DNA of 64,000 bases, taken from positions 96,001-160,000 of the IMG/VR virus record IMGVR_UViG_3300010163_000002; one strand, written 5' to 3'. The position numbers were made by a program, and so were the translations under genes. This DNA is from a virus (lineage: Duplodnaviria; Caudoviricetes). The notes beneath the pieces are model-generated. The model was not told where the DNA came from, ran no database searches, and saw nothing but the letters and a program-made list of their open reading frames with translations. Positions within the stretch are counted from its first letter, which is position 1. Every line of letters begins with the position of its first letter. Shown here one piece after another: positions 18,474-55,354 of the stretch.

Positions 18474-20252
18474 TTATGCATTTACTATTCTACACATATT
18501 ACCTTTATAGTACTTGTAATGAATATTCTGATTATTATGCATAATCATATACATATTCATAGCAGCAAATGCCGCTGCATTAGCAAACATATTTGTCTCG
18601 CTTTCAGGGAATTTAACATCATTAAATTCTACTATGCGGCCAACTGTGCCATTATTTGTACCCATTCCAGGCAATTCTATGCCTTCACGCATTGTTGTCT
18701 TATGCACAGGCAAAGTTGAGTAGATATCTTCAACAAATTTAATAGTGTTCTTAATATACGGCATATAGCATGTATATAGATCGTTATTAATATAATACCT
18801 ACTTTTAACCCTTTGCATTCCAAGAAATTTATTACCTTCTTTATCATACTCTGGTGCAATAAGACAAATCCAATCACTATTTTCAAGAATAAGGTTAGAT
18901 TCGCCGACATTAGATCTACCAATCAATCTTACCAGATCTGCCTTATTCTTTATACGTGCTTCATCAACAGAATTTGTTGCCACTCTATTAAGCTGAGACG
19001 CAGTAATAACTGGTATGTTTTTAAGTGTAGCAAATGTCTTAAATTCATTAACTACAGCTCCAAGTTGTACTCTTAGATCTCCTCCAAATGTACCCTCAAC
19101 AGATCTGATACGTTTGAGATAGTCCTGCAGTACACATATGACCTCATAGCCTTCATCTTCGAGATCTTCTGTCATTGTATATAAATATGATGTATCTACA
19201 GATAAATTAGGCTTGAATTTTATTATGATATCTATAGGATCATTAGAAGATAAGTGTAAATTACCTTTATTAACAAGTGCGTCCATAATTTCATCTTCGG
19301 AATAATTAAGCATCCCTTCACCAACGCACATGCTAAACAATCTTTCTACTGTTTCTTTAACTCCATTTTCCATTACTAAGAGTACTACGCAAGGCCTTTT
19401 AGTTGGATCTGCGCATTTGTATTCTCTATTATAACGTTTAAGTTGAATGGCCATATCAAGTAGAGTACTAGATTTACCTTCACCGGGTAATCCTAATATT
19501 GTATATACCCTTCCCGATTCAACGCCACCACCAGTCATAAGATTCAAAGCTTGAGTACCAAATTTAAGTTTGTTAGACGGAGAAGATAATTGTTTATACG
19601 TGCTTATCATAGCTTCAACATATCTATCTCCGGATAATGAGAAAGTAATATCTTCCGCTGCTTCTGCTCTGGCTCTTCTGAATTTAACTTGCATGGAGTT
19701 TATCCAGTTTTCAACTTCTCTTAATATTGGCCCTCTGTTAATATAATCAGTAGATTTAAATTTAGTTAATAATGACAAACCTAAATCAATATCATTATAT
19801 ACTATTGCATCTTTAAGTATTTGAGATACAGATTGGTTTACCCAATTAACCTCGTTATTATCCAATTCTGAAAAATCATCCAAAACATTTATACCTAAAC
19901 CACCGGTAATTTGTCTTAAAATCATCTTTCTATTAGTTAGATTATATTTTAATCTTGCTTCTATACCTTTATTGATAAAGTCTATTCTAGCAAGTCTTTC
20001 TTGATCATTATTATAAACATTCATATCTATGGTGAGGAATAAATTACGCAAATTAATCACATTTCCTCTACGAATGTTACGATTTTCAGAAAGTATATAT
20101 GAACACATCAAATCTAATTCTGTGATATCGAAATTTACATCTATTTTAAAATTTTGATTTTTTATTGGTGAATTAGGTTGATACCTCTGCCTTCTATCTT
20201 CCATTCTCTTACCACTCCTTACCCGGACACTAGTATCTTCATGTCCGGGCAT
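18474..20252 (-). CDS. dnaB: DnaB-like replicative helicase
   Basis: Walker A 'GLPGEGKS', 'LVMEN', 'QDYL', 'VITASQLNR', 'VKSRY'. Confidence 0.9.
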   Translation of the reverse strand: MPGHEDTSVRVRSGKRMEDRRQRYQPNSPIKNQNFKIDVNFDITELDLMCSYILSENRNIRRGNVINLRNLFLTIDMNVYNNDQERLARIDFINKGIEARLKYNLTNRKMILRQITGGLGINVLDDFSELDNNEVNWVNQSVSQILKDAIVYNDIDLGLSLLTKFKSTDYINRGPILREVENWINSMQVKFRRARAEAAEDITFSLSGDRYVEAMISTYKQLSSPSNKLKFGTQALNLMTGGGVESGRVYTILGLPGEGKSSTLLDMAIQLKRYNREYKCADPTKRPCVVLLVMENGVKETVERLFSMCVGEGMLNYSEDEIMDALVNKGNLHLSSNDPIDIIIKFKPNLSVDTSYLYTMTEDLEDEGYEVICVLQDYLKRIRSVEGTFGGDLRVQLGAVVNEFKTFATLKNIPVITASQLNRVATNSVDEARIKNKADLVRLIGRSNVGESNLILENSDWICLIAPEYDKEGNKFLGMQRVKSRYYINNDLYTCYMPYIKNTIKFVEDIYSTLPVHKTTMREGIELPGMGTNNGTVGRIVEFNDVKFPESETNMFANAAAFAAMNMYMIMHNNQNIHYKYYKGNMCRIVNA

Positions 20253-37753: not shown

Positions 37754-38131
37754 TTAAACCCTACCATGCCAATAAGAGCTCAGCGCCTTTTTGATTTTAT
37801 CCTCCATATCATCATTTGAAAATTCTCCAAGCGGAGCGACAGAAATGCGCTGTACTATATCTGAGCCATAATATACACCTTGCATAGTATCTATTCGACA
37901 TATTTTATAAGGTTTAGATAGGATCTCTTTATCATATTTTTCTTCTACCTCTGGATTTGGTAAAGAGATTGCAAACCTCATTTTACCGCACTCTGTAGTA
38001 ACAAGTGTAAATTTATCACCATTAATTATATTTTGGTATTTTCCTGTATTAGGATTTATACGTTCATATAAGAATCTAAGTAAATCTTTTTCATTGATTT
38101 CCCCAAGATATTTAGGTTTTGTTCTACTCAT
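37754..38131 (-). CDS. Protein with domain homologous to the N-terminal part of the DGR target domain (VR-less paralog 2)
   Basis: 'KYLGEINEKDLLRFL...NTGKYQNIINGDKFTLV' aligns with 38142-38690 and with the target; AAAGGAG RBS at MSRTKP. Confidence 0.65.
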   Translation of the reverse strand: MSRTKPKYLGEINEKDLLRFLYERINPNTGKYQNIINGDKFTLVTTECGKMRFAISLPNPEVEEKYDKEILSKPYKICRIDTMQGVYYGSDIVQRISVAPLGEFSNDDMEDKIKKALSSYWHGRV

Positions 38132-38141
38132 ATATTCTCCT

Positions 38142-38690
38142 TTAGTTGTAAATAGGATTTTTCTCACGTATCACCTTATCAAATTTGGTATCTTTATCAG
38201 ATTTACCTTTAAGTATCCATTGAGTATACATGTCTCCAATTGTTTCACATCTTACGTGATAACCTATATCAGGATTAAATCCCATAGATAATACTCTAAC
38301 TTTCACTTTATCGTCGTTATTTACAAGTGTAAATACATCTCCGATTTTTATATTTTCAAATTTTCCAGTGTCAATTTTATGATCTTTTATAAATTGAGAA
38401 ATATTTTCTGGAGTTATTTCTCCAAAGTCTTTTACTTCAAATGATAAATTATTAAGATTCATACTTCCTCCTTTTAAAAATATTGGAGATAAGCCAACCA
38501 TAGAGTAGCAAGCTGGCCTTACAGTAATACGTTCTGCTGATTTATCCCATGATAAATATGGCATATAATGTGGAGCCCATGTATCCTCTGAAAGCCGCTT
38601 ATCAAATTTTTCTATTTTGCTTTTTAATGATACGCATTGCTTAAACTTATGATTCCATCCCTTTATCTTACGGTTTTTCTTTTTTCTCAT
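38142..38690 (-). CDS. Protein with domain homologous to the N-terminal part of the DGR target domain (VR-less paralog 1)
   Basis: 19/52 ungapped identities to target residues encoded at 40307-40462; internal AAAGGAGG RBS before an in-frame ATG at 38462. Confidence 0.7.
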   Translation of the reverse strand: MRKKKNRKIKGWNHKFKQCVSLKSKIEKFDKRLSEDTWAPHYMPYLSWDKSAERITVRPACYSMVGLSPIFLKGGSMNLNNLSFEVKDFGEITPENISQFIKDHKIDTGKFENIKIGDVFTLVNNDDKVKVRVLSMGFNPDIGYHVRCETIGDMYTQWILKGKSDKDTKFDKVIREKNPIYN

Positions 38691-38828
38691 TATTTGCCTC
38701 CTTTGTTTAATATTTTAAAAAGTCCACATAAAGGTATTACTTTATGTCTGGCTATAAATATATTATACATTTCAAATATACTTTTTTACCTGTATAGGTT
38801 CTAATAAAACGTAACAATGTTAGACTCA

Positions 38829-38868: not shown

Positions 38869-40095
38869 ATGGCGATTAATAAGGCCACTTTAGCCAAAGA
38901 GATCGATGGCGTTATAGAGTATATATACCCTAAAACTACTGCTGATCTTGTAGAGTATGATGCGTCTTATACTGTTGAAGAAAAAATTAAACAGTTAGAG
39001 AAAAACATCACTGGCGTCAATGACAGGGTTAGTAATCTGACCACTGGAATTGGAGACGGTAGTATTACATCTGTACTCGATGCTGAGCTTTTGGATATTA
39101 GAATTCCTAATGCCGGTGTAGTCGGAACAGAAGTTAAATATGCATCTGCTGGCGATGCTGTCAGAGGTCAAGTTGGTAAACTTTCTGATGAGATAGGCCA
39201 GAATAGAAGTAATCTTTCTAACGTGAAAGGCAAAGTTGATACTCTTGAGAAAATTGTTTCCTCAATTCAGGGAACCGCTGGAAATTCTAATGCAGAAGTA
39301 GTTGGATTGAGGGTTCCAAATTCTAAAATCAGTGAATTAACATACCAGAATGCCGGAGAGGCTGTAAGAGCACAGTTAGGAATTTTATTTGATAAAATCA
39401 TAGCTACCGATGCAAAAATAAGCACAATGCAAAATGCTTTCCAAGGAGGAGAAGTAAGTTCTGCTGAAGGATTGGAATTGGTAGATATTCGTACTCCTAG
39501 CTATAATGTGGTTCCAGAGGGAACTACGTATAAGACAGCCGGCGAAGCAGTAAGAGCACAGATGGATGCTCTTAATGAAAAAATTGAAGAGGTAAAAGAT
39601 GGGACGTATTATGAACTCCTGTATGTAAATGGAGAGCCTCTCTATACATCAGACGGTGAACCTATACTTGTATCCATCTCTTATAATGAAGTCGGAACAT
39701 CTGATATTTCTGCACTTGAGAAACGTATGAGGCAGGAGCTCAAGGATACGTTGGCTGCCCATACAAGAATTATGCAGCAGACTCTTAATGTAATTAATGA
39801 AGGAATGGAAACAATGCAAAGAAATATCGATATGATATATACCGGAAAATACTGTGAACCGATTATGATCGATGGCGACGAGTGGTATACTTCTGATAAG
39901 CAGCAAATTGTTACTTATACATCAGTTGGAGATTTAGCTCAGGAAGCTATTGACAGAACAGCTCAGTTATTAAGAGGAGAAATCTATCAAGCTAAAGTAT
40001 CTTGTGCAAGAGCTTTAAAAGATTGGGTTATGGATCAGAACATGTTGTTTCTTGTTAATACAGAACCTATAATCGAAGAAGTTACAGCATCTTGA
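38869..40095 (+). CDS. Tail fibre / baseplate-attached fibre protein
   Basis: Three repeats of E-x-x-[DG]-[IL]-R-x-P...Y-x-x-AG[DE]AVR[GA]Q typical of Firmicute phage fibre stems, coiled coils; N-terminal 'IYPKT.ADLV'; late promoter motif. Confidence 0.72.
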   Translation: MAINKATLAKEIDGVIEYIYPKTTADLVEYDASYTVEEKIKQLEKNITGVNDRVSNLTTGIGDGSITSVLDAELLDIRIPNAGVVGTEVKYASAGDAVRGQVGKLSDEIGQNRSNLSNVKGKVDTLEKIVSSIQGTAGNSNAEVVGLRVPNSKISELTYQNAGEAVRAQLGILFDKIIATDAKISTMQNAFQGGEVSSAEGLELVDIRTPSYNVVPEGTTYKTAGEAVRAQMDALNEKIEEVKDGTYYELLYVNGEPLYTSDGEPILVSISYNEVGTSDISALEKRMRQELKDTLAAHTRIMQQTLNVINEGMETMQRNIDMIYTGKYCEPIMIDGDEWYTSDKQQIVTYTSVGDLAQEAIDRTAQLLRGEIYQAKVSCARALKDWVMDQNMLFLVNTEPIIEEVTAS

Positions 40096-40162
40096 TATAT
40101 GTTATGGATTAAAACCAGAAATGGTTTTAATATATAAATTTTTAATAGGAGGTAAACCTACA

Positions 40163-41041
40163 ATGGGCAAAACAATTGCTAATTTAATTCAGGTAAATGA
40201 ATTGACAGCTAATGATGTATTTGTAGTAGGTACGGCCGCCGGCGATCGTAAGGTTCCTTACAATGTGCTGGTGCAGAATACTTCACACAATGCAATCTTT
40301 AGAGGCAAAAATCTTGGAACTGTAACAGCAGCCAACATTGACGCTTTCATTACTCAGCATGGTATTGCTACCGGAGTGTTTAATGATATCTATGTTGGTG
40401 ATTACTTCACTGCATCATATGCCGGAGCAAATACGGTATTCCGTATTGCTGGTATCAACTTCTATAAGAATACTGGTGATACGCAGTTGACTGCTAATCA
40501 TGTAGTTATCGTTCCAGATGGTAACCTTACAACTGCTGCGATGAATTCCACTAATACTACTGGAAAGAGTGCTAATGAAGCTAATACTTCTGAGAAGAGC
40601 GGATTCCTTGGTAGTGATATGTGGAATATTGTACTTCCGGATGTTAATGAGAAGCTTGCTGCTATCTTTGGCGGCCATCTGCTTACTCACAGAGAAATCC
40701 TTTCTAATAGCATGGATGAGAATGCTATTCCGTCTGGAAATCCATCTTGGAAGGGTGCTAGTAACGGATGGGAATGGGTAGATTGTAAGGCAGTTCTTAT
40801 GTCTGAAGTTGAAGTATATGGAGCTCCTGTATGCGGATCTTCGCTGTATGATGTAGGAATTGCAAACTGCATTCTTCCGCTGTTCGTGCTTGAAAAGCGT
40901 TATCTTACAAACAGAAGCTGGTTTTGGCTCAGAGGCGTAGCAAGTTCCGCGAATTTCTGCTATTGCACCAGCTATGGCGTTTCGGTCTGCAATAACGCGT
41001 CTAATGTCCTCGGCGTGCGGCCCCGCTTCCTTTTAGGTTGA
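40163..41041 (+). CDS. DGR target protein: putative receptor-binding protein with C-terminal C-type-lectin-fold (DUF6273-like) variable domain
   Basis: AGGAGG RBS before ATG 40163; 'LMSEVEVYG', 'WFWLRGVASSANFC...NASNVLGVRPRFLLG*'; contains the VR. Confidence 0.88.
   Translation: MGKTIANLIQVNELTANDVFVVGTAAGDRKVPYNVLVQNTSHNAIFRGKNLGTVTAANIDAFITQHGIATGVFNDIYVGDYFTASYAGANTVFRIAGINFYKNTGDTQLTANHVVIVPDGNLTTAAMNSTNTTGKSANEANTSEKSGFLGSDMWNIVLPDVNEKLAAIFGGHLLTHREILSNSMDENAIPSGNPSWKGASNGWEWVDCKAVLMSEVEVYGAPVCGSSLYDVGIANCILPLFVLEKRYLTNRSWFWLRGVASSANFCYCTSYGVSVCNNASNVLGVRPRFLLG
40943..41031 (+). repeat. DGR variable repeat (VR) including GC-rich/IMH end
   Basis: 89-nt ungapped match to 41984-42072 with 15 mismatches, all opposite A in TR. 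Confidence 0.96.
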
Positions 41042-41101
41042 TCCATAGCCCTAAAGCCGCCCGCTGTGTCGGTGCGGCATGGGCTATGAAAGATCAACCT
41101 A
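41034..41101 (+). promoter_or_regulatory. Long hairpin/cruciform immediately 3' of VR (DGR target-recognition element)
   Basis: Nested arms TAGGTTGATC/GATCAACCTA, CATAGCCC/GGGCTATG, GCCGC/GCGGC, CCG/CGG. Confidence 0.75.
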
Positions 41102-41139
41102 CAACGATAGCATATAAAATGTAAAAATATACCATATAA

Positions 41140-41152
41140 AACACTCTAATAA
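41140..41152 (+). promoter_or_regulatory. Putative phage RNAP promoter (AACA-N6-TAA) upstream of avd
   Basis: AACA-ctctaa-TAA, same motif as upstream of ten other plus-strand operons. Confidence 0.55.
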
Positions 41153-41280
41153 TATATGCTATGAGATATATTCTGGTCTTCTTATATAGCATGGCATGTA
41201 TTATCGTTATCCACATCCTTTTTGATTACGGGCGAGGTAAAACTCGCCTGTAATAATAAATATTATAAGAGGTTGAAACT

Positions 41281-41985
41281 ATGTCTGTTCCTGTTTATAG
41301 AAGAAATGAATCTAAATTGGAGTTTTACGAAAATTTCTTTAAGCTTAGAAGAGAAGTTTTACTTCTGTTAGCTAGGGATTTCGGAATTAAAGCTAGAACG
41401 TATGACGTAAATCTTGTGTCTGACATTTATGGCTTAAATAATCATGATAGAAATGAACTAATGGATATAGGGCAAAGAAATAATATCACCGGGTTTAATG
41501 TTGATAAGATCCCTATGTGGTTAATCGAGAATTGGCGGTATGAGATAATGAACATTTTAAATAATATTGGGATCGCCATTAACTGTGCTAATGCTATTTA
41601 CATAGTTAATCTTCCCGAATATTATGATAGACGGAATTTTCTTAATCATGCTATAGGATATTGCATGGCTCTTCAGGATAAGCTGAATGAAATCATAGTT
41701 TGCTTAAAAGATGTCAAATTAGGTGCGTATGAAAACGTATATAAGTTGATAGTTAGCGAAATAAGATTGTTAAAAGCTTTAAGGAGAAGTGACAATAAAC
41801 TATATAAAAAGTATGAGAATACTTTTCCGTACTACAATGGTTCGTTTTATTACAATGCTCCGCCTGTCCCGCCAACGTATATGTATGACGTTGAGAATGG
41901 CTCGGTAAATCGAGTCATGCTGGACATGTGCAAAATAGTTGATAAGAAAACAACCCCGTTTAAATCTCTGGGCATAGCTGCATAA
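41281..41985 (+). CDS. avd: DGR accessory variability determinant (Avd-like four-helix bundle) with C-terminal extension
   Basis: Position between VR and TR; 'MSVPVYRRNESKLEF', 'AN.IY.....EY.DRR.FLNHAIGYC..L', 'EIRLLKALRRSDNK'. Confidence 0.85.
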   Translation: MSVPVYRRNESKLEFYENFFKLRREVLLLLARDFGIKARTYDVNLVSDIYGLNNHDRNELMDIGQRNNITGFNVDKIPMWLIENWRYEIMNILNNIGIAINCANAIYIVNLPEYYDRRNFLNHAIGYCMALQDKLNEIIVCLKDVKLGAYENVYKLIVSEIRLLKALRRSDNKLYKKYENTFPYYNGSFYYNAPPVPPTYMYDVENGSVNRVMLDMCKIVDKKTTPFKSLGIAA

Positions 41986-42072
41986 TTCCACGAATTTCTG
42001 CAATTGCAACAACAATGGCAATTCGAACTACAATAACGCGTCTAATGTCAACGGCGTGCGGCCCCGATTACT
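41984..42072 (+). repeat. DGR template repeat (TR)
   Basis: Non-coding, 12 AAY codons in the VR frame, 28 adenines; begins at the avd stop codon. Confidence 0.96.
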
Positions 42073-42209
42073 GCCGGTATAACCAGAGGGTTATATTGGA
42101 GAGTAAGGAGCTTATGCCCATCCTCTCGTTCATACGAACGTTTGGTGAATTATTACTCGGAACCCGGATACGTCCGATGGTTTAATTTTTGTTTTGGTTG
42201 GTGCTATAG
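42073..42209 (+). ncRNA. Structured 3' spacer of the DGR template RNA
   Basis: Hairpins at 42074-42099, 42127-42140 (CGTTC-atac-GAACG) and 42165-42176 (CGGA-tacg-TCCG) between TR and RT. Confidence 0.55.
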
Positions 42210-43400
42210 ATGTATGAAGCAATCTGTTTAATTGATAATTTATATGACGGATTTAGAGATGTTAGGTCTAAAAGCGGATGGAAACCTGAAACTCAACGGT
42301 ATTCTATGTATATGATGCCTAATCTTATTGAATTGAGAGATTCATTAGTTAATGGTACGTATAGACCTACTCCTCCAAATGGCTTTATTCAAAATGAGAG
42401 AGGAAAACCTAGATGGATAGAGTCAAGGTGCGTTAACGATAGAATCGTTAATAAAGTGGTGCATGATCATGAGATCATGCCAGCCATATTTCCAAAACTT
42501 ATATATGATAATGCCGCGTCTATAGAAAACAGAGGAACAGATTTCTTCAGGCGTAGATTGTTGTACCATCTTTCTAGTTTTGCTGCAGAACATGGAACAG
42601 ACGGTTATATTCTATTAATAGATTTTAAGAAATTCTTTGATAATATCAGACATGATGATCTAATACTGATGTTCAGACAGGTGATTTCTGATCCAAGATC
42701 GATGCGCCTTATTGAGATGATGATTAGATCTAATAGAGTTGATGTTTCATACATGAGTGATGAAGAGTATGCCAATTGCATGAATGTACCGTTCAATAAC
42801 CTTGAGTATCGTCAGAAAATTGTTTCTGGCGAATATAAAGCAACTGGCGAACGGTTTATGAATAAGTACATGGGGATTGGCAGCCAGATAAGTCAGGATG
42901 CTGGTATTTATTATCCTCATGATATAGATAATTATTGCAAGATAGTGAGGGGCGTTAAGGGTTATGGAAGATATATGGATGATTCTTATGCCATTCATCA
43001 TTCTAAAGAATTCTTATGGGATTTATTGATGCATATAAAAGAAATATGTATTACCCTTGGAATATTTTTGAATGAACAAAAGACTCAGATTGTAAATCTC
43101 AAACATGAATTTACAATATTACATACAAGATATAAGCTACATGAAAATGGAGATGTTTCAATAATCGCTGATTCTGATTCATTCAGCAGAGAACGCCGTA
43201 AGCTTAATAAGCAAGCTGATATGTTGAATGAAGGTTATGAAAGAATATCATATGATATTATTCGTAATCAATATAACTCATGGAGAGGAAATATTGTTAG
43301 AACAGCTAATGGTAGAAATATAGAACCATTACAAAGGATGGATAATCATTTTAATGAATTATTCATCGAACCATTCGCTAATGGCCAAATAATTATATAG
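42210..43400 (+). CDS. DGR reverse transcriptase
   Basis: 'ERGKPRWI...NDRIV', 'DFKKFFDNIRH', DGR-type 'GIGSQISQ', catalytic 'RYMDD'; no maturase/endonuclease domain. Confidence 0.95.
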   Translation: MYEAICLIDNLYDGFRDVRSKSGWKPETQRYSMYMMPNLIELRDSLVNGTYRPTPPNGFIQNERGKPRWIESRCVNDRIVNKVVHDHEIMPAIFPKLIYDNAASIENRGTDFFRRRLLYHLSSFAAEHGTDGYILLIDFKKFFDNIRHDDLILMFRQVISDPRSMRLIEMMIRSNRVDVSYMSDEEYANCMNVPFNNLEYRQKIVSGEYKATGERFMNKYMGIGSQISQDAGIYYPHDIDNYCKIVRGVKGYGRYMDDSYAIHHSKEFLWDLLMHIKEICITLGIFLNEQKTQIVNLKHEFTILHTRYKLHENGDVSIIADSDSFSRERRKLNKQADMLNEGYERISYDIIRNQYNSWRGNIVRTANGRNIEPLQRMDNHFNELFIEPFANGQIII

Positions 43401-43413
43401 GAGGTATATTAAA

Positions 43414-43665
43414 ATGGCTAGAACTTCTGCTGATATCCAGCGCGAAATCGATGTATTGCTTAACAGGTTGTCTGCTAACTCTTCAGATATTGGTGATTGG
43501 AAGGTCACTAAGATTTATGAAGCAAGACTTCTGAATAATCCCGATCCTTATGATACTGCTGCTCTTATTGCTGAGCGGCAGGCTGTACGTGATCAGATTA
43601 ATACTCTGCAGGAAGAACTGAAGACTGTTCAGTCGGCAGAATCTCATAATATCCAGTATGAGTAA
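43414..43665 (+). CDS. Small tail-fibre-associated protein (putative assembly chaperone)
   Basis: 'DWKVTKIYEA...PYD...ERQAVRDQINTLQ' pattern seen in small proteins beside phage fibre genes; AGGAGG RBS. Confidence 0.55.
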   Translation: MARTSADIQREIDVLLNRLSANSSDIGDWKVTKIYEARLLNNPDPYDTAALIAERQAVRDQINTLQEELKTVQSAESHNIQYE

Positions 43666-43702
43666 TTAATAATTTACAGTATTTTGCCATAATATAAAAT
43701 AC

Positions 43703-43728
43703 ACCCGTAGGGAGAAATCCCTACGGGT
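43703..43728. terminator. Bidirectional terminator closing the fibre/DGR operon
   Basis: ACCCGTAGGGA-gaaa-TCCCTACGGGT. Confidence 0.82.
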
Positions 43729-43735
43729 TTAATAT

Positions 43736-44332
43736 TTATCTGTTATAACCAAGCTTTCTCAAATGTTTGCTTACTGTGGAAGCGCATCTATCGCATTCTT
43801 CCGCAATTTTAGCATATGTATAACCTTTATTAAATAATTTAATAAATTTATTCACTTCTTCATTTGTTACTCTATTAGAAGTTCTCTTTAGAGTTTCACT
43901 GTTTTTCATACGATATTTAATTGTGTTTTCCGATATATTCAGCTCTTCAGCAATGGTTTTTATATAGCAACCGTCTTTAACCATACTATTTAATTTTTTA
44001 ATCTGTTTATCTGTTAATTTGTTTTTGGAGTTAATCTTTATTTTAGCTGGAGATTTTAATCTTGCACGCACACAACTACGGCTTTTTCCTAAAGCATTAG
44101 CAATTTGTGACAATGATAACCCTGCACTTCTCATTGCTAACATTTCTTCTCGTTCCGATTCAGTTGTTATATTATTATAGGTAGTTATTGCGTTATATAC
44201 TTCAATTTGAGATAATTTAGTCTTTTTGGCGATTTCATCAATATAATAACCAGAATTACGATACATAACGCAAATCCTTTTATTATACGATTCTATAGAT
44301 TCTCCCTTTTTTCTTCTTGGTTTTCCTAACAT
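43736..44332 (-). CDS. Multi-HTH DNA-binding protein
   Basis: Four HTH-like repeats: 'GYYIDEIAKK', 'GLSLSQIANALG', 'GCYIKTIAEELN', 'GYTYAKIAEEC'. Confidence 0.8.
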   Translation of the reverse strand: MLGKPRRKKGESIESYNKRICVMYRNSGYYIDEIAKKTKLSQIEVYNAITTYNNITTESEREEMLAMRSAGLSLSQIANALGKSRSCVRARLKSPAKIKINSKNKLTDKQIKKLNSMVKDGCYIKTIAEELNISENTIKYRMKNSETLKRTSNRVTNEEVNKFIKLFNKGYTYAKIAEECDRCASTVSKHLRKLGYNR

Positions 44333-50364: not shown

Positions 50365-50961
50365 ATGAATAAAAACAAAAATGCAAAATCCGCAGTAGAA
50401 GAGGTGCACGTTATGCTCGATCGTGCTTTAAATGAAATGGTTAGTAATGGGTTAGAAGTTGATGGGCGACTAGACATTATTGATCCAAATACAAATGAAA
50501 AATGCTCTGTGTATGTAGGCAAAGATCCCACGTACGACCCCGATTTTGAAGATGCTGTATGTGGCGATGATTATGATGAGATTGAAAGTACAAAACCCGA
50601 GACAGAATGTGAGTGCCAGGACGATGAAACAGCGTTTATCGATGCGGTACAGGATATATTCATGCACGGATTATCGGATCATAATAGCGCCATTGGCACT
50701 ATAAGAAGGGATAATATTAATAAGTTCTTTAATGATTGTGGAATTGTATTTCCAAATACAAACGAGATTAAATTTGAAAATAGATGTTTATCAGATGGGC
50801 AGCTTGATATGGTTGATAACATTAGGTCTAATAATGTTATTGTTACTGAATATTTAACGGAAGTATTCAGACGCGGATTATCAGCATTGCTTGAATATAA
50901 CACACAGGCAATGATACGGTATCATAATATGTGCTCAATTGTTGAAAAGGAGGACAAATAA
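50365..50961 (+). CDS. Hypothetical acidic protein
   Basis: 198-aa ORF, GGAGG RBS; C-terminal NMCSIVE motif. Confidence 0.7.
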   Translation: MNKNKNAKSAVEEVHVMLDRALNEMVSNGLEVDGRLDIIDPNTNEKCSVYVGKDPTYDPDFEDAVCGDDYDEIESTKPETECECQDDETAFIDAVQDIFMHGLSDHNSAIGTIRRDNINKFFNDCGIVFPNTNEIKFENRCLSDGQLDMVDNIRSNNVIVTEYLTEVFRRGLSALLEYNTQAMIRYHNMCSIVEKEDK

Positions 50962-54682: not shown

Positions 54683-55354
54683 GTGCTGATTATGTTTAAC
54701 AATCACACTATGTCAGTAGTCACAGATTTAGGAGAAATAGCAAATGTAATTAACAATATTGATTATATTGCTGTGGCAGCAATTACAACAAGCGATTATC
54801 CAAAATTACCAAATATCTATAATGCAACTATTCTTATGCCACCTACAGAAATATTAATGAAATGGGCGGAAGGCGATCCATATATTATGCAGAATCAGTA
54901 TCCTGCATATCTGAACAGCCAATGTCCTGATGATATGATAGTTGCTTTATTGGCTCTATTGACTAAAAAGAATGTGATACTATATATGCCAATGGATGAA
55001 TTTAATGTATTTGGTATGATGTTGCTTAACCATATATACTTTTCATATGGTATCACATGCAATACACCAACTACAAGGTTCGACGTTGATGCAACAAGAA
55101 TACCGCTGTTATTGTGCAAGTTCTATATGATAGACGCTATGAGCTCGCAGGATCTTTTAGCATCATATCCTGCCAATTCGCCATTACCATATTTTGTTAT
55201 AAACAAGCTTGCTGAGGAATTGCATCCATTTAGTTATCCAGTTACGTTTAATGAATATGCAGATTATTTTAATAATCTTAATGCTTCTAAAGGTAACAAT
55301 ATCGTTCATCCGTCTATGGTTAAGGTGGTAGATAAAAATGATAATCTTCATTGA
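54683..55354 (+). CDS. Hypothetical protein (paralog pair C)
   Basis: AGGAGG RBS; resembles 55338-55868; C-terminal SMVKVVD motif. Confidence 0.7.
   Translation: MLIMFNNHTMSVVTDLGEIANVINNIDYIAVAAITTSDYPKLPNIYNATILMPPTEILMKWAEGDPYIMQNQYPAYLNSQCPDDMIVALLALLTKKNVILYMPMDEFNVFGMMLLNHIYFSYGITCNTPTTRFDVDATRIPLLLCKFYMIDAMSSQDLLASYPANSPLPYFVINKLAEELHPFSYPVTFNEYADYFNNLNASKGNNIVHPSMVKVVDKNDNLH

Follow-up and report, generated by a model that had tools for sequence, protein, structure and literature searches.

An intact BPP-1-like diversity-generating retroelement probably resides in a jumbo phage with an AR9/PBS1-like RNA polymerase

The working of diversity-generating retroelements (DGRs) is well known from one small temperate phage, and gut-virome catalogues list them by the tens of thousands. 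Here we asked whether a five-gene unit in a 64,000-nucleotide (nt) stretch of a tailed-phage record (IMG/VR record IMGVR_UViG_3300010163_000002, positions 96,001 to 160,000; this whole stretch is hereafter the window, numbered from its first letter) is an intact DGR, whether it belongs to the genome in which it lies, and what its target protein is for. The genome is that of a jumbo phage with a split multisubunit RNA polymerase (RNAP) like that of AR9/PBS1. The locus is, with good probability, an intact DGR similar to that of Bordetella phage BPP-1, resident in this 248.8-kb phage and diversifying a lectin-fold target. A sequence-only reading of the window had proposed a complete BPP-1-type cassette, and the target, accessory gene, template repeat (TR), and reverse transcriptase (RT) were all in place, in that order. 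The features of the cassette are as follows.

40163..41041, plus strand: DGR target, 292 aa, a short N-terminal adaptor followed by a predicted C-type lectin-like domain (CTLD); frame open from 40121
40943..41031, plus strand: variable repeat (VR), in an ungapped 89-nt alignment to the TR
41012..41025, plus strand: GC-rich block GGCGTGCGGCCCCG, 14 nt, at the 3' end of the VR, read from the sequence as resembling an initiation of mutagenic homing (IMH) element
41034..41101, plus strand: long hairpin with a GC core, a cruciform candidate, 3 nt past the VR and spanning the target stop codon
41281..41985, plus strand: accessory protein, 234 aa, pI 8.9, modelled as a bundle of four helices, interrupted by an insert (about residues 32-78) and followed by a disordered tail (182-234) that contains LDMCKIV
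41984..42072, plus strand: TR, beginning at the stop codon of the accessory gene
42073..42209, plus strand: TR-RT spacer, 137 nt, with a hairpin CCGGA-UACG-UCCG at about 42163-42180
42210..43400, plus strand: DGR RT, 396 aa (RVT_1 at 5.5e-14; phrog_1423 at 3e-58)

The TR and VR aligned over their 89 nt with 0 gaps, and all 15 mismatches fell at TR adenines, while the 61 non-A positions showed 0 differences. The probability that 15 mismatches would all fall within the 28 A of the 89 positions is 9.8e-10. These coordinates and counts, together with the 12 AAY codons of the TR in the target frame, were exactly those given by the sequence-only reading. The VR makes up the final 30 codons of the intact target open reading frame (ORF), in frame, and no substitution at TR adenines can reach a stop codon. 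The theoretical repertoire was computed as 1.3e14 proteins from the AAY codons alone, in keeping with the earlier figure of about 10^14 stop-free variants, and as about 4e15 overall. When the whole 248,905-bp record was scanned with any change allowed at A positions, no third TR/VR copy was found, and the remote VRs that had been thought possible elsewhere in the genome did not appear; only the TR and the single VR were recovered.

The 3' boundary of the repeats was also typical in layout. A copy of the IMH-like block lies within the TR at 42053-42066, and the TR/VR homology stops 6 nt past this block. In the related loci described below, the A that follows the GC block in the TR was replaced in the VR in 7 of 7 cases, by C in five and by T in two. 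The suggestion that the last mismatches represent the IMH/IMH* difference fits this replacement, although the pattern does not prove it. The hairpin previously seen after the VR is real, folding as DNA at -25 kcal/mol with a z score of -6.7 (the ranges being -25 to -27 kcal/mol and -4.8 to -6.7), and it was equalled by 0 of 200 shuffled sequences. GC-rich hairpins occupy the matching post-VR position in four of the related loci (L012, L009, L003, and L005). The sequence and its predicted fold therefore contain the combination expected of a DGR, an IMH-like GC boundary followed by a GC-rich inverted repeat.

The RT is the single RT in the genome. As the sequence-only reading had it, the protein carries the [LIV]GxxxSQ signature of the DGR clade, in the form IGSQISQ (motif 4), and the catalytic YxDD motif, in the form YMDD. 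The RT relatives examined, at 34-59% identity, all adjoin A-only TR/VR pairs. The DGR RNA presumably includes the spacer between TR and RT. When seven loci with RTs that are 34-59% identical were aligned, 9 of the 12 predicted pairs of the spacer hairpin were kept through two-sided changes, and the UACG hairpin probably belongs to the RNA recognized by the RT complex. No Rfam family matched across 38.8-43.8 kb.

For the target, the start had been placed at 40121. The ATG at 40163 is probably the true start, because it is preceded by an AGGAGG ribosome-binding site (40147-40152) and gives a protein of 292 aa, compared with 293 aa in most of the 436 homologues. The C-type lectin fold that had been anticipated for this protein was obtained with AlphaFold 2 (AF2; pLDDT 82), with the lectin-like domain running from about residue 78 to the C-terminal end. 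Residues 78-306 of the model matched CTLDs (9qa6 at Z 13.0, 4eps at Z 8.5, and many lectins at Z 5-6), and an unbiased structure search returned mostly CTLDs, including the DGR variable protein TvpA (2y3c) at Z 5.7. The top match, 9qa6, is the N-terminal domain of an IgA peptidase of Thomasclavelia ramosa, with 21% identity. The model thus suggests that the C-terminal domain of the target adopts a C-type lectin fold with the VR on its C-terminal strands. In Pfam, the target gave nothing beyond a sub-threshold match to DUF6273.

The accessory gene had been called avd. Its position, between target and TR, is kept in every related locus, and the predicted fold agrees with this name. The helices of the AF2 model span residues 12-31, 79-105, 111-141, and 151-179, and four of the six best structure matches by VIA score were Avd-family bundles, namely 2gsc (Z 13.1), 2rld (12.4), 8ub7_B, the Avd chain of a DGR ribonucleoprotein (12.4), and 4dwl (12.2), although helical bundles reach such Z values by chance and the background is high. 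The Avd structures at Z 12.2-12.4 superposed with a root-mean-square deviation of 2.1-2.3 Å over 107-112 residues (2.1 Å over 107 for 4dwl), and the Foldseek probability to 2rld was 0.99. The sequence speaks against the name. No Pfam, NCBIfam, PDB-sequence, or profile match to Avd was found for the accessory protein, hhalign of its family against BPP-1 Avd gave a probability of only 0.06, and 234 aa is about twice the normal length. Avd has a pI of 9.5 according to Wu et al. (PMC5758913), compared with 8.9 here. We therefore describe the accessory protein as Avd-like in predicted fold and in position only. It belongs to a family of 1537 representative clusters with a core of about 180 aa (alignment A6), and 0 of the 60 members scanned matched the Pfam Avd model, PF05635; the family profile found nothing in PDB sequences or Pfam either. 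Across Pfam, NCBIfam, and PDB sequences, the accessory, target, upstream, and small proteins of the unit gave no informative match.

The tail of the accessory protein carries a motif that recurs in this genome. Of 241 ORFs, 9 have the pattern M-[CV]-x-[IV]-[IV] within their final 35 residues, compared with 0.44 in shuffled sequences (maximum 2). Besides the DGR accessory protein, these nine encode a DNA polymerase, two helicases, an RNAP subunit, an HNH endonuclease, and three unannotated proteins; all six products with an assigned function act on nucleic acids. Within the window, the motif-bearing ORFs lie at 18474-20252, 41281-41985, 50365-50961, and 54683-55354. The motif was retained in accessory orthologues from L009 (REMCIIV) and L012 (NDMCVIV) and in the homologues P0007 and P0191, and loosely in P0207, while the remainder of the tail varied among these motif-keeping orthologues. 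It was absent from the tails of 75 of 75 short members of the accessory family and from the core (first 180 residues) of 153 of 153 members examined. The motif could be a docking tag for a shared hub, such as a clamp-like partner, or a tag for sorting to a replication compartment. A search of the genome with models of the T4-type clamp (PF02916) and DnaN (PF00712) found no clamp by these two models. Tentatively, and at odds that we would put well short of even, the helper protein of this jumbo lineage may have gained a tagged tail that docks or sorts the complex of Avd-like protein and RT to a replication-transcription hub or compartment.

Searches based on the RT and on the target recovered eight further loci. 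Those with an RT (L003-L007, found through the RT, and L009 and L012, found through the target) have an A-only TR/VR pair just upstream of it, and the gene order is the same in these seven related loci. L012 (a 179-kb contig) and L009 (a 248-kb contig) have all five genes in common with the window, at 52-64% identity. The tag-bearing accessory homologue P0191 occurs, in synteny like that of L009, on contigs of up to 0.2-1 Mb, and L004 is an IMG/VR phage of 229 kb, 97% complete, that has both a DGR and an RNAP subunit. Because the module recurs in L012, L009, L004, and the P0191 contigs, the DGR is a recurrent and probably inherited feature of jumbo phages of this kind and no accident of assembly. 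Cassette DNA gave no match among GenBank phages.

Natural variation was seen in the sister cassette of L012. The 90%-identity cluster of its target (P0013; 61% identical to the window target) holds 11 natural variants from different samples. Their VRs differ at 14 codons, all 14 of which contain A in the L012 TR, whereas the intervening non-A codons are invariant; outside the VR, there are 15 variable columns in the other 258 residues. The confinement of VR variation to TR-A codons indicates that this sister cassette is active in nature.

The record closes on an exact 115-bp overlap, giving a complete circular assembly of 248,790 bp. Its split RNAP genes matched phrog_2962, phrog_2987, and phrog_3015 at 1e-50 to 8.5e-73, and among cultured phages the RNAP subunit is closest to those of Bacillus phages AR9/PBS1 (36.6%) and Staphylococcus jumbo phages (32%). 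Near the cassette lie a helix-turn-helix (HTH) protein, the RNAP beta-type subunit (phrog_2962, 8.5e-73), NrdD, and a second RNAP piece (phrog_2987). The sequence-only reading had spoken of a phiKZ/AR9-like jumbo phage; the jumbo size and the AR9/PBS1-like RNAP bear out the AR9 half of this name, and the phiKZ half found no support, as a single-sequence search, run without a positive control, gave no match to the phiKZ gp054, the chimallin shell protein of the nucleus-forming Chimalliviridae. The lytic lifestyle presumed earlier is put in question by a tyrosine recombinase gene (Phage_integrase, 2.6e-37; G000:C1:192857-193342 of the full record), and a related gene lies near the L012 DGR. ThyA and dUTPase genes are present at G000:C1:180854-181630 and G000:C1:9527-9859. 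The uracil DNA of AR9 is therefore unlikely here, and the phage is probably AR9-like with thymine rather than uracil DNA.

All five genes between 38869 and 43665 lie on the plus strand and make up a self-contained unit flanked by minus-strand genes. Besides the cassette, the unit and its end comprise three features.

38869..40095, plus strand: acidic 408-aa protein (P0004) upstream of the target, with three internal repeats ending in AGEAVRAQ-like motifs
43414..43665, plus strand: small acidic helical protein, 83 aa, phrog_17180
43703..43728, both strands: bidirectional terminator-like stem-loop, its stem 11 bp long (7 GC pairs) with a T-rich tail on either strand

The 408-aa protein belongs to no Pfam or PHROG family, and homologue and atlas searches gave few relatives, which share only its N-terminal module, with tail-fibre leads below threshold. 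In both L012 and L009, the gene just upstream of the target opens with a module that is 55-64% identical to the N-terminal 60-110 aa of this protein, and the module is also found on three further L009 proteins, one with a faint Fibritin_C match. The protein may be a fibre shaft or adaptor. Homologues of the 83-aa protein come after the RT in L012, L009, L006, and L003, and straight after the target or target paralogues in L004 and L010/L011; the gene seems to travel with the target rather than with the RT. L010 and L011 (contigs of 269 kb and 92 kb) have this small partner gene right behind the target and lack an accessory gene, a TR, and an RT within 8 kb; the L010 target is 65% identical to that of the window and has a VR-like C-terminus. 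The DGR there is either lost or remote. An insertion of accessory gene, TR, and RT between target and partner, as proposed earlier, agrees with the gene adjacency in L010/L011 and L004, which does not decide between insertion and loss.

The stem-loop at 43703-43728 matches the terminator that had been proposed to close the unit. Sites resembling sigma-70 promoters were no more numerous than in shuffled sequence. The pattern AACA-N-TGTTA-[GT]-A has only two matches in the genome; one of them, AACAATGTTAGA at 38813-38824, precedes the 408-aa gene by about 45 nt and is an unvalidated late-promoter candidate. Between the terminator and the RNAP subunit gene lies the 198-aa HTH protein (43736-44332, minus strand), which has tandem HTH units (HTH_38, HTH_23, Sigma70_r4, and resolvase-type matches). 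Immediately upstream of the unit, the small minus-strand ORFs 38142-38690 and 37754-38167 have in common with the start of the target lectin domain a segment of about 60 aa. The E value of the 182-aa ORF at 38142-38690 was 8e-6 to the target and 5e-11 to the L012 target, and the two ORFs matched one another at E 7e-6; they are partial paralogues without a VR.

Several observations weigh against an intact DGR that is resident and active in this phage. The target has a GC content of 42%, above the 32.7% of the genome, and the closest GenBank phage RTs come from Clostridia phages of 39-62 kb, as would suit an assembly chimera in which the DGR of a small gut phage was joined to jumbo-phage sequence. 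We regard such a chimera as highly improbable, since the contig closes on itself, the RT and accessory genes have the GC content of the genome (33-34%), and the module recurs on independent assemblies of 179 and 248 kb, with a variant of the L012 target on a 252-kb contig; the contigs of 0.2-1 Mb with P0191 and the 229-kb RNAP-encoding phage with its own DGR argue in the same direction. Moreover, because the MCxIV tag in the accessory tail is that of the genome's own DNA polymerase, helicases, and RNAP subunit, the cassette appears to belong to this genome. The window's exact TR has no second copy in IMG/VR or JGI metagenome contigs, and the cluster of its target has one member. Together with the atypical accessory protein, this would agree with a fossil cassette, the VR having been diversified in the past and the system no longer functioning in this phage. 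We consider this improbable: all ORFs are intact, the RT catalytic motifs are kept, the structured RNA and DNA elements are conserved, and natural variation is demonstrable in a sister cassette at 52-61% identity, while the lack of any non-A difference over the 89 nt argues against long inactivity.

The role of the target is a separate matter. It is most likely a virion receptor-binding protein, a tail role being suggested by context in relatives. In L003, a tape measure, a minor tail protein, and tail proteins are followed by the target homologue, and in L005 a tail fibre protein precedes it, so that the homologues stand at the distal end of tail modules. The L010 target lies beside Peptidase_S74 and YadA-like fibre genes, some target homologues are fused to the tail Collar domain PF07484, and the modular N-terminal adaptor of the upstream protein is common to several L009 neighbours, as in fibre sets. 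The term tail-fibre operon, used in the sequence-only reading, cannot be upheld for this unit, as named tail-fibre families have no match among its genes and the unit lies amid minus-strand non-structural genes (HTH protein, RNAP subunit, NrdD, and unknowns) with no recognized tail gene adjacent. These points leave some room for a real DGR whose target is another exposed lectin-fold protein, for instance one that decorates the capsid or the whiskers, or an adhesin that binds mucus glycans or other non-host ligands. A second target of the related DGR L007 weakly matches Hoc-like head decoration, the best structural match of the window target is a domain of a bacterial IgA peptidase and no phage fibre, and lectin-fold DGR targets outside tails have been described in phages (PMC10743442). 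In view of the tail contexts above, we hold this alternative to be unlikely, though not negligible, and prefer a receptor-binding protein.

By analogy with BPP-1, we infer the biochemical steps, the activity in the window phage, and the tail-fibre role of the target as follows. The region from accessory gene through TR and spacer to RT would be transcribed, and the RT and the Avd-like bundle protein would bind the TR-spacer RNA, including the UACG hairpin. The RT would copy the TR into cDNA with misincorporation opposite adenines, and this cDNA would replace the VR, with the 3' limit set by the IMH-like GC-rich block and the downstream hairpin. About 14 codons, 12 of them AAY, would be randomized in the last strands of the lectin-like domain. 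If this domain forms the tip of the 292-aa protein, the phage population could sample many binding specificities.

The gene order of the window cassette is the same as that of BPP-1 (mtd-avd-TR-brt; architecture B1, Wu et al. 2018, PMC5758913), and target-accessory-TR-RT is the commonest DGR architecture (PMC5758913). In both systems, a lectin-fold target carries the VR at its 3' end, the stop codon of avd or the accessory gene abuts the TR, a GC-rich block and a hairpin follow in the region of the VR end, mismatches are restricted to adenines, and the TR is rich in AAY; the TR-RT spacer is 144 nt in BPP-1 and 137 nt here. They differ in that the window RT is 23% identical to Brt over the N-terminal 200 aa, Avd has 128 aa and shows no sequence similarity to the 234-aa accessory protein, a small fifth gene follows the RT here, and BPP-1 is a 42-kb temperate podovirus whereas the carrier here has 249 kb and its own RNAP. 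The nearest RTs come from small gut Clostridia phages (Roseburia phage Shimadzu, Acutalibacter phage Fontainebleau, and Faecalibacterium phages, and the IMG/VR loci L003, L005, and L006), at 34% identity to isolates and 39-42% to IMG/VR loci. These DGRs have the target family, the accessory family of about 180 aa, the spacer hairpin, and the gene order in common with the window. Their genomes are 25-62 kb, their cassettes close a recognizable tail module, unlike that of the window, and their accessory proteins are without the C-terminal tail and tag. With TvpA of Treponema denticola and other variable proteins of the CLec-FGE fold, the target has in common the fold class and the C-terminal position of the variable residues, although the similarity to TvpA itself is weak (2y3c at Z 5.7).

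AR9/PBS1 and the Staphylococcus jumbo phages of the MarsHill group resemble the window genome in size (about 250 kb) and in having a split multisubunit RNAP. For the Staphylococcus jumbo phages, the authors state that the RT lies outside any DGR (bioRxiv 10.1101/2020.12.14.422802; PMC10638138). GenBank has 64 phage records with a similar RT; among the 60 of them that were listed, none was at least 200 kb, the largest being 137 kb. DGRs are abundant in gut phages, including lytic and crAss-like phages (PMC8241571, PMC12636319, PMC8143477, PMC11054128). The literature searched yielded no account of a DGR in any jumbo phage that encodes an RNAP of its own, and Al-Shayeb et al. do not mention DGRs. 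The mechanism here would be canonical and the jumbo RNAP-phage setting little noted; only the tagged and extended helper protein might prove to be new.

The accessory family also bears on annotation. Because the Pfam Avd model detects none of the 60 scanned members of a family of more than 1,500 clusters, annotation that depends on Avd misses such cassettes, and pipelines requiring Avd would mislabel them. For the phages themselves, these findings would mean that a stable DGR module is maintained and passed on vertically by large phages with their own transcription machinery, a group often taken to be strictly lytic. The least understood step of a DGR is how the cDNA reaches and replaces the VR, and this locus offers two handles on it, the spacer hairpin and the tagged helper. 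If the tag acts as tentatively proposed, mutagenic retrohoming would be physically tied to phage DNA as it replicates, an adaptation undescribed for DGRs.

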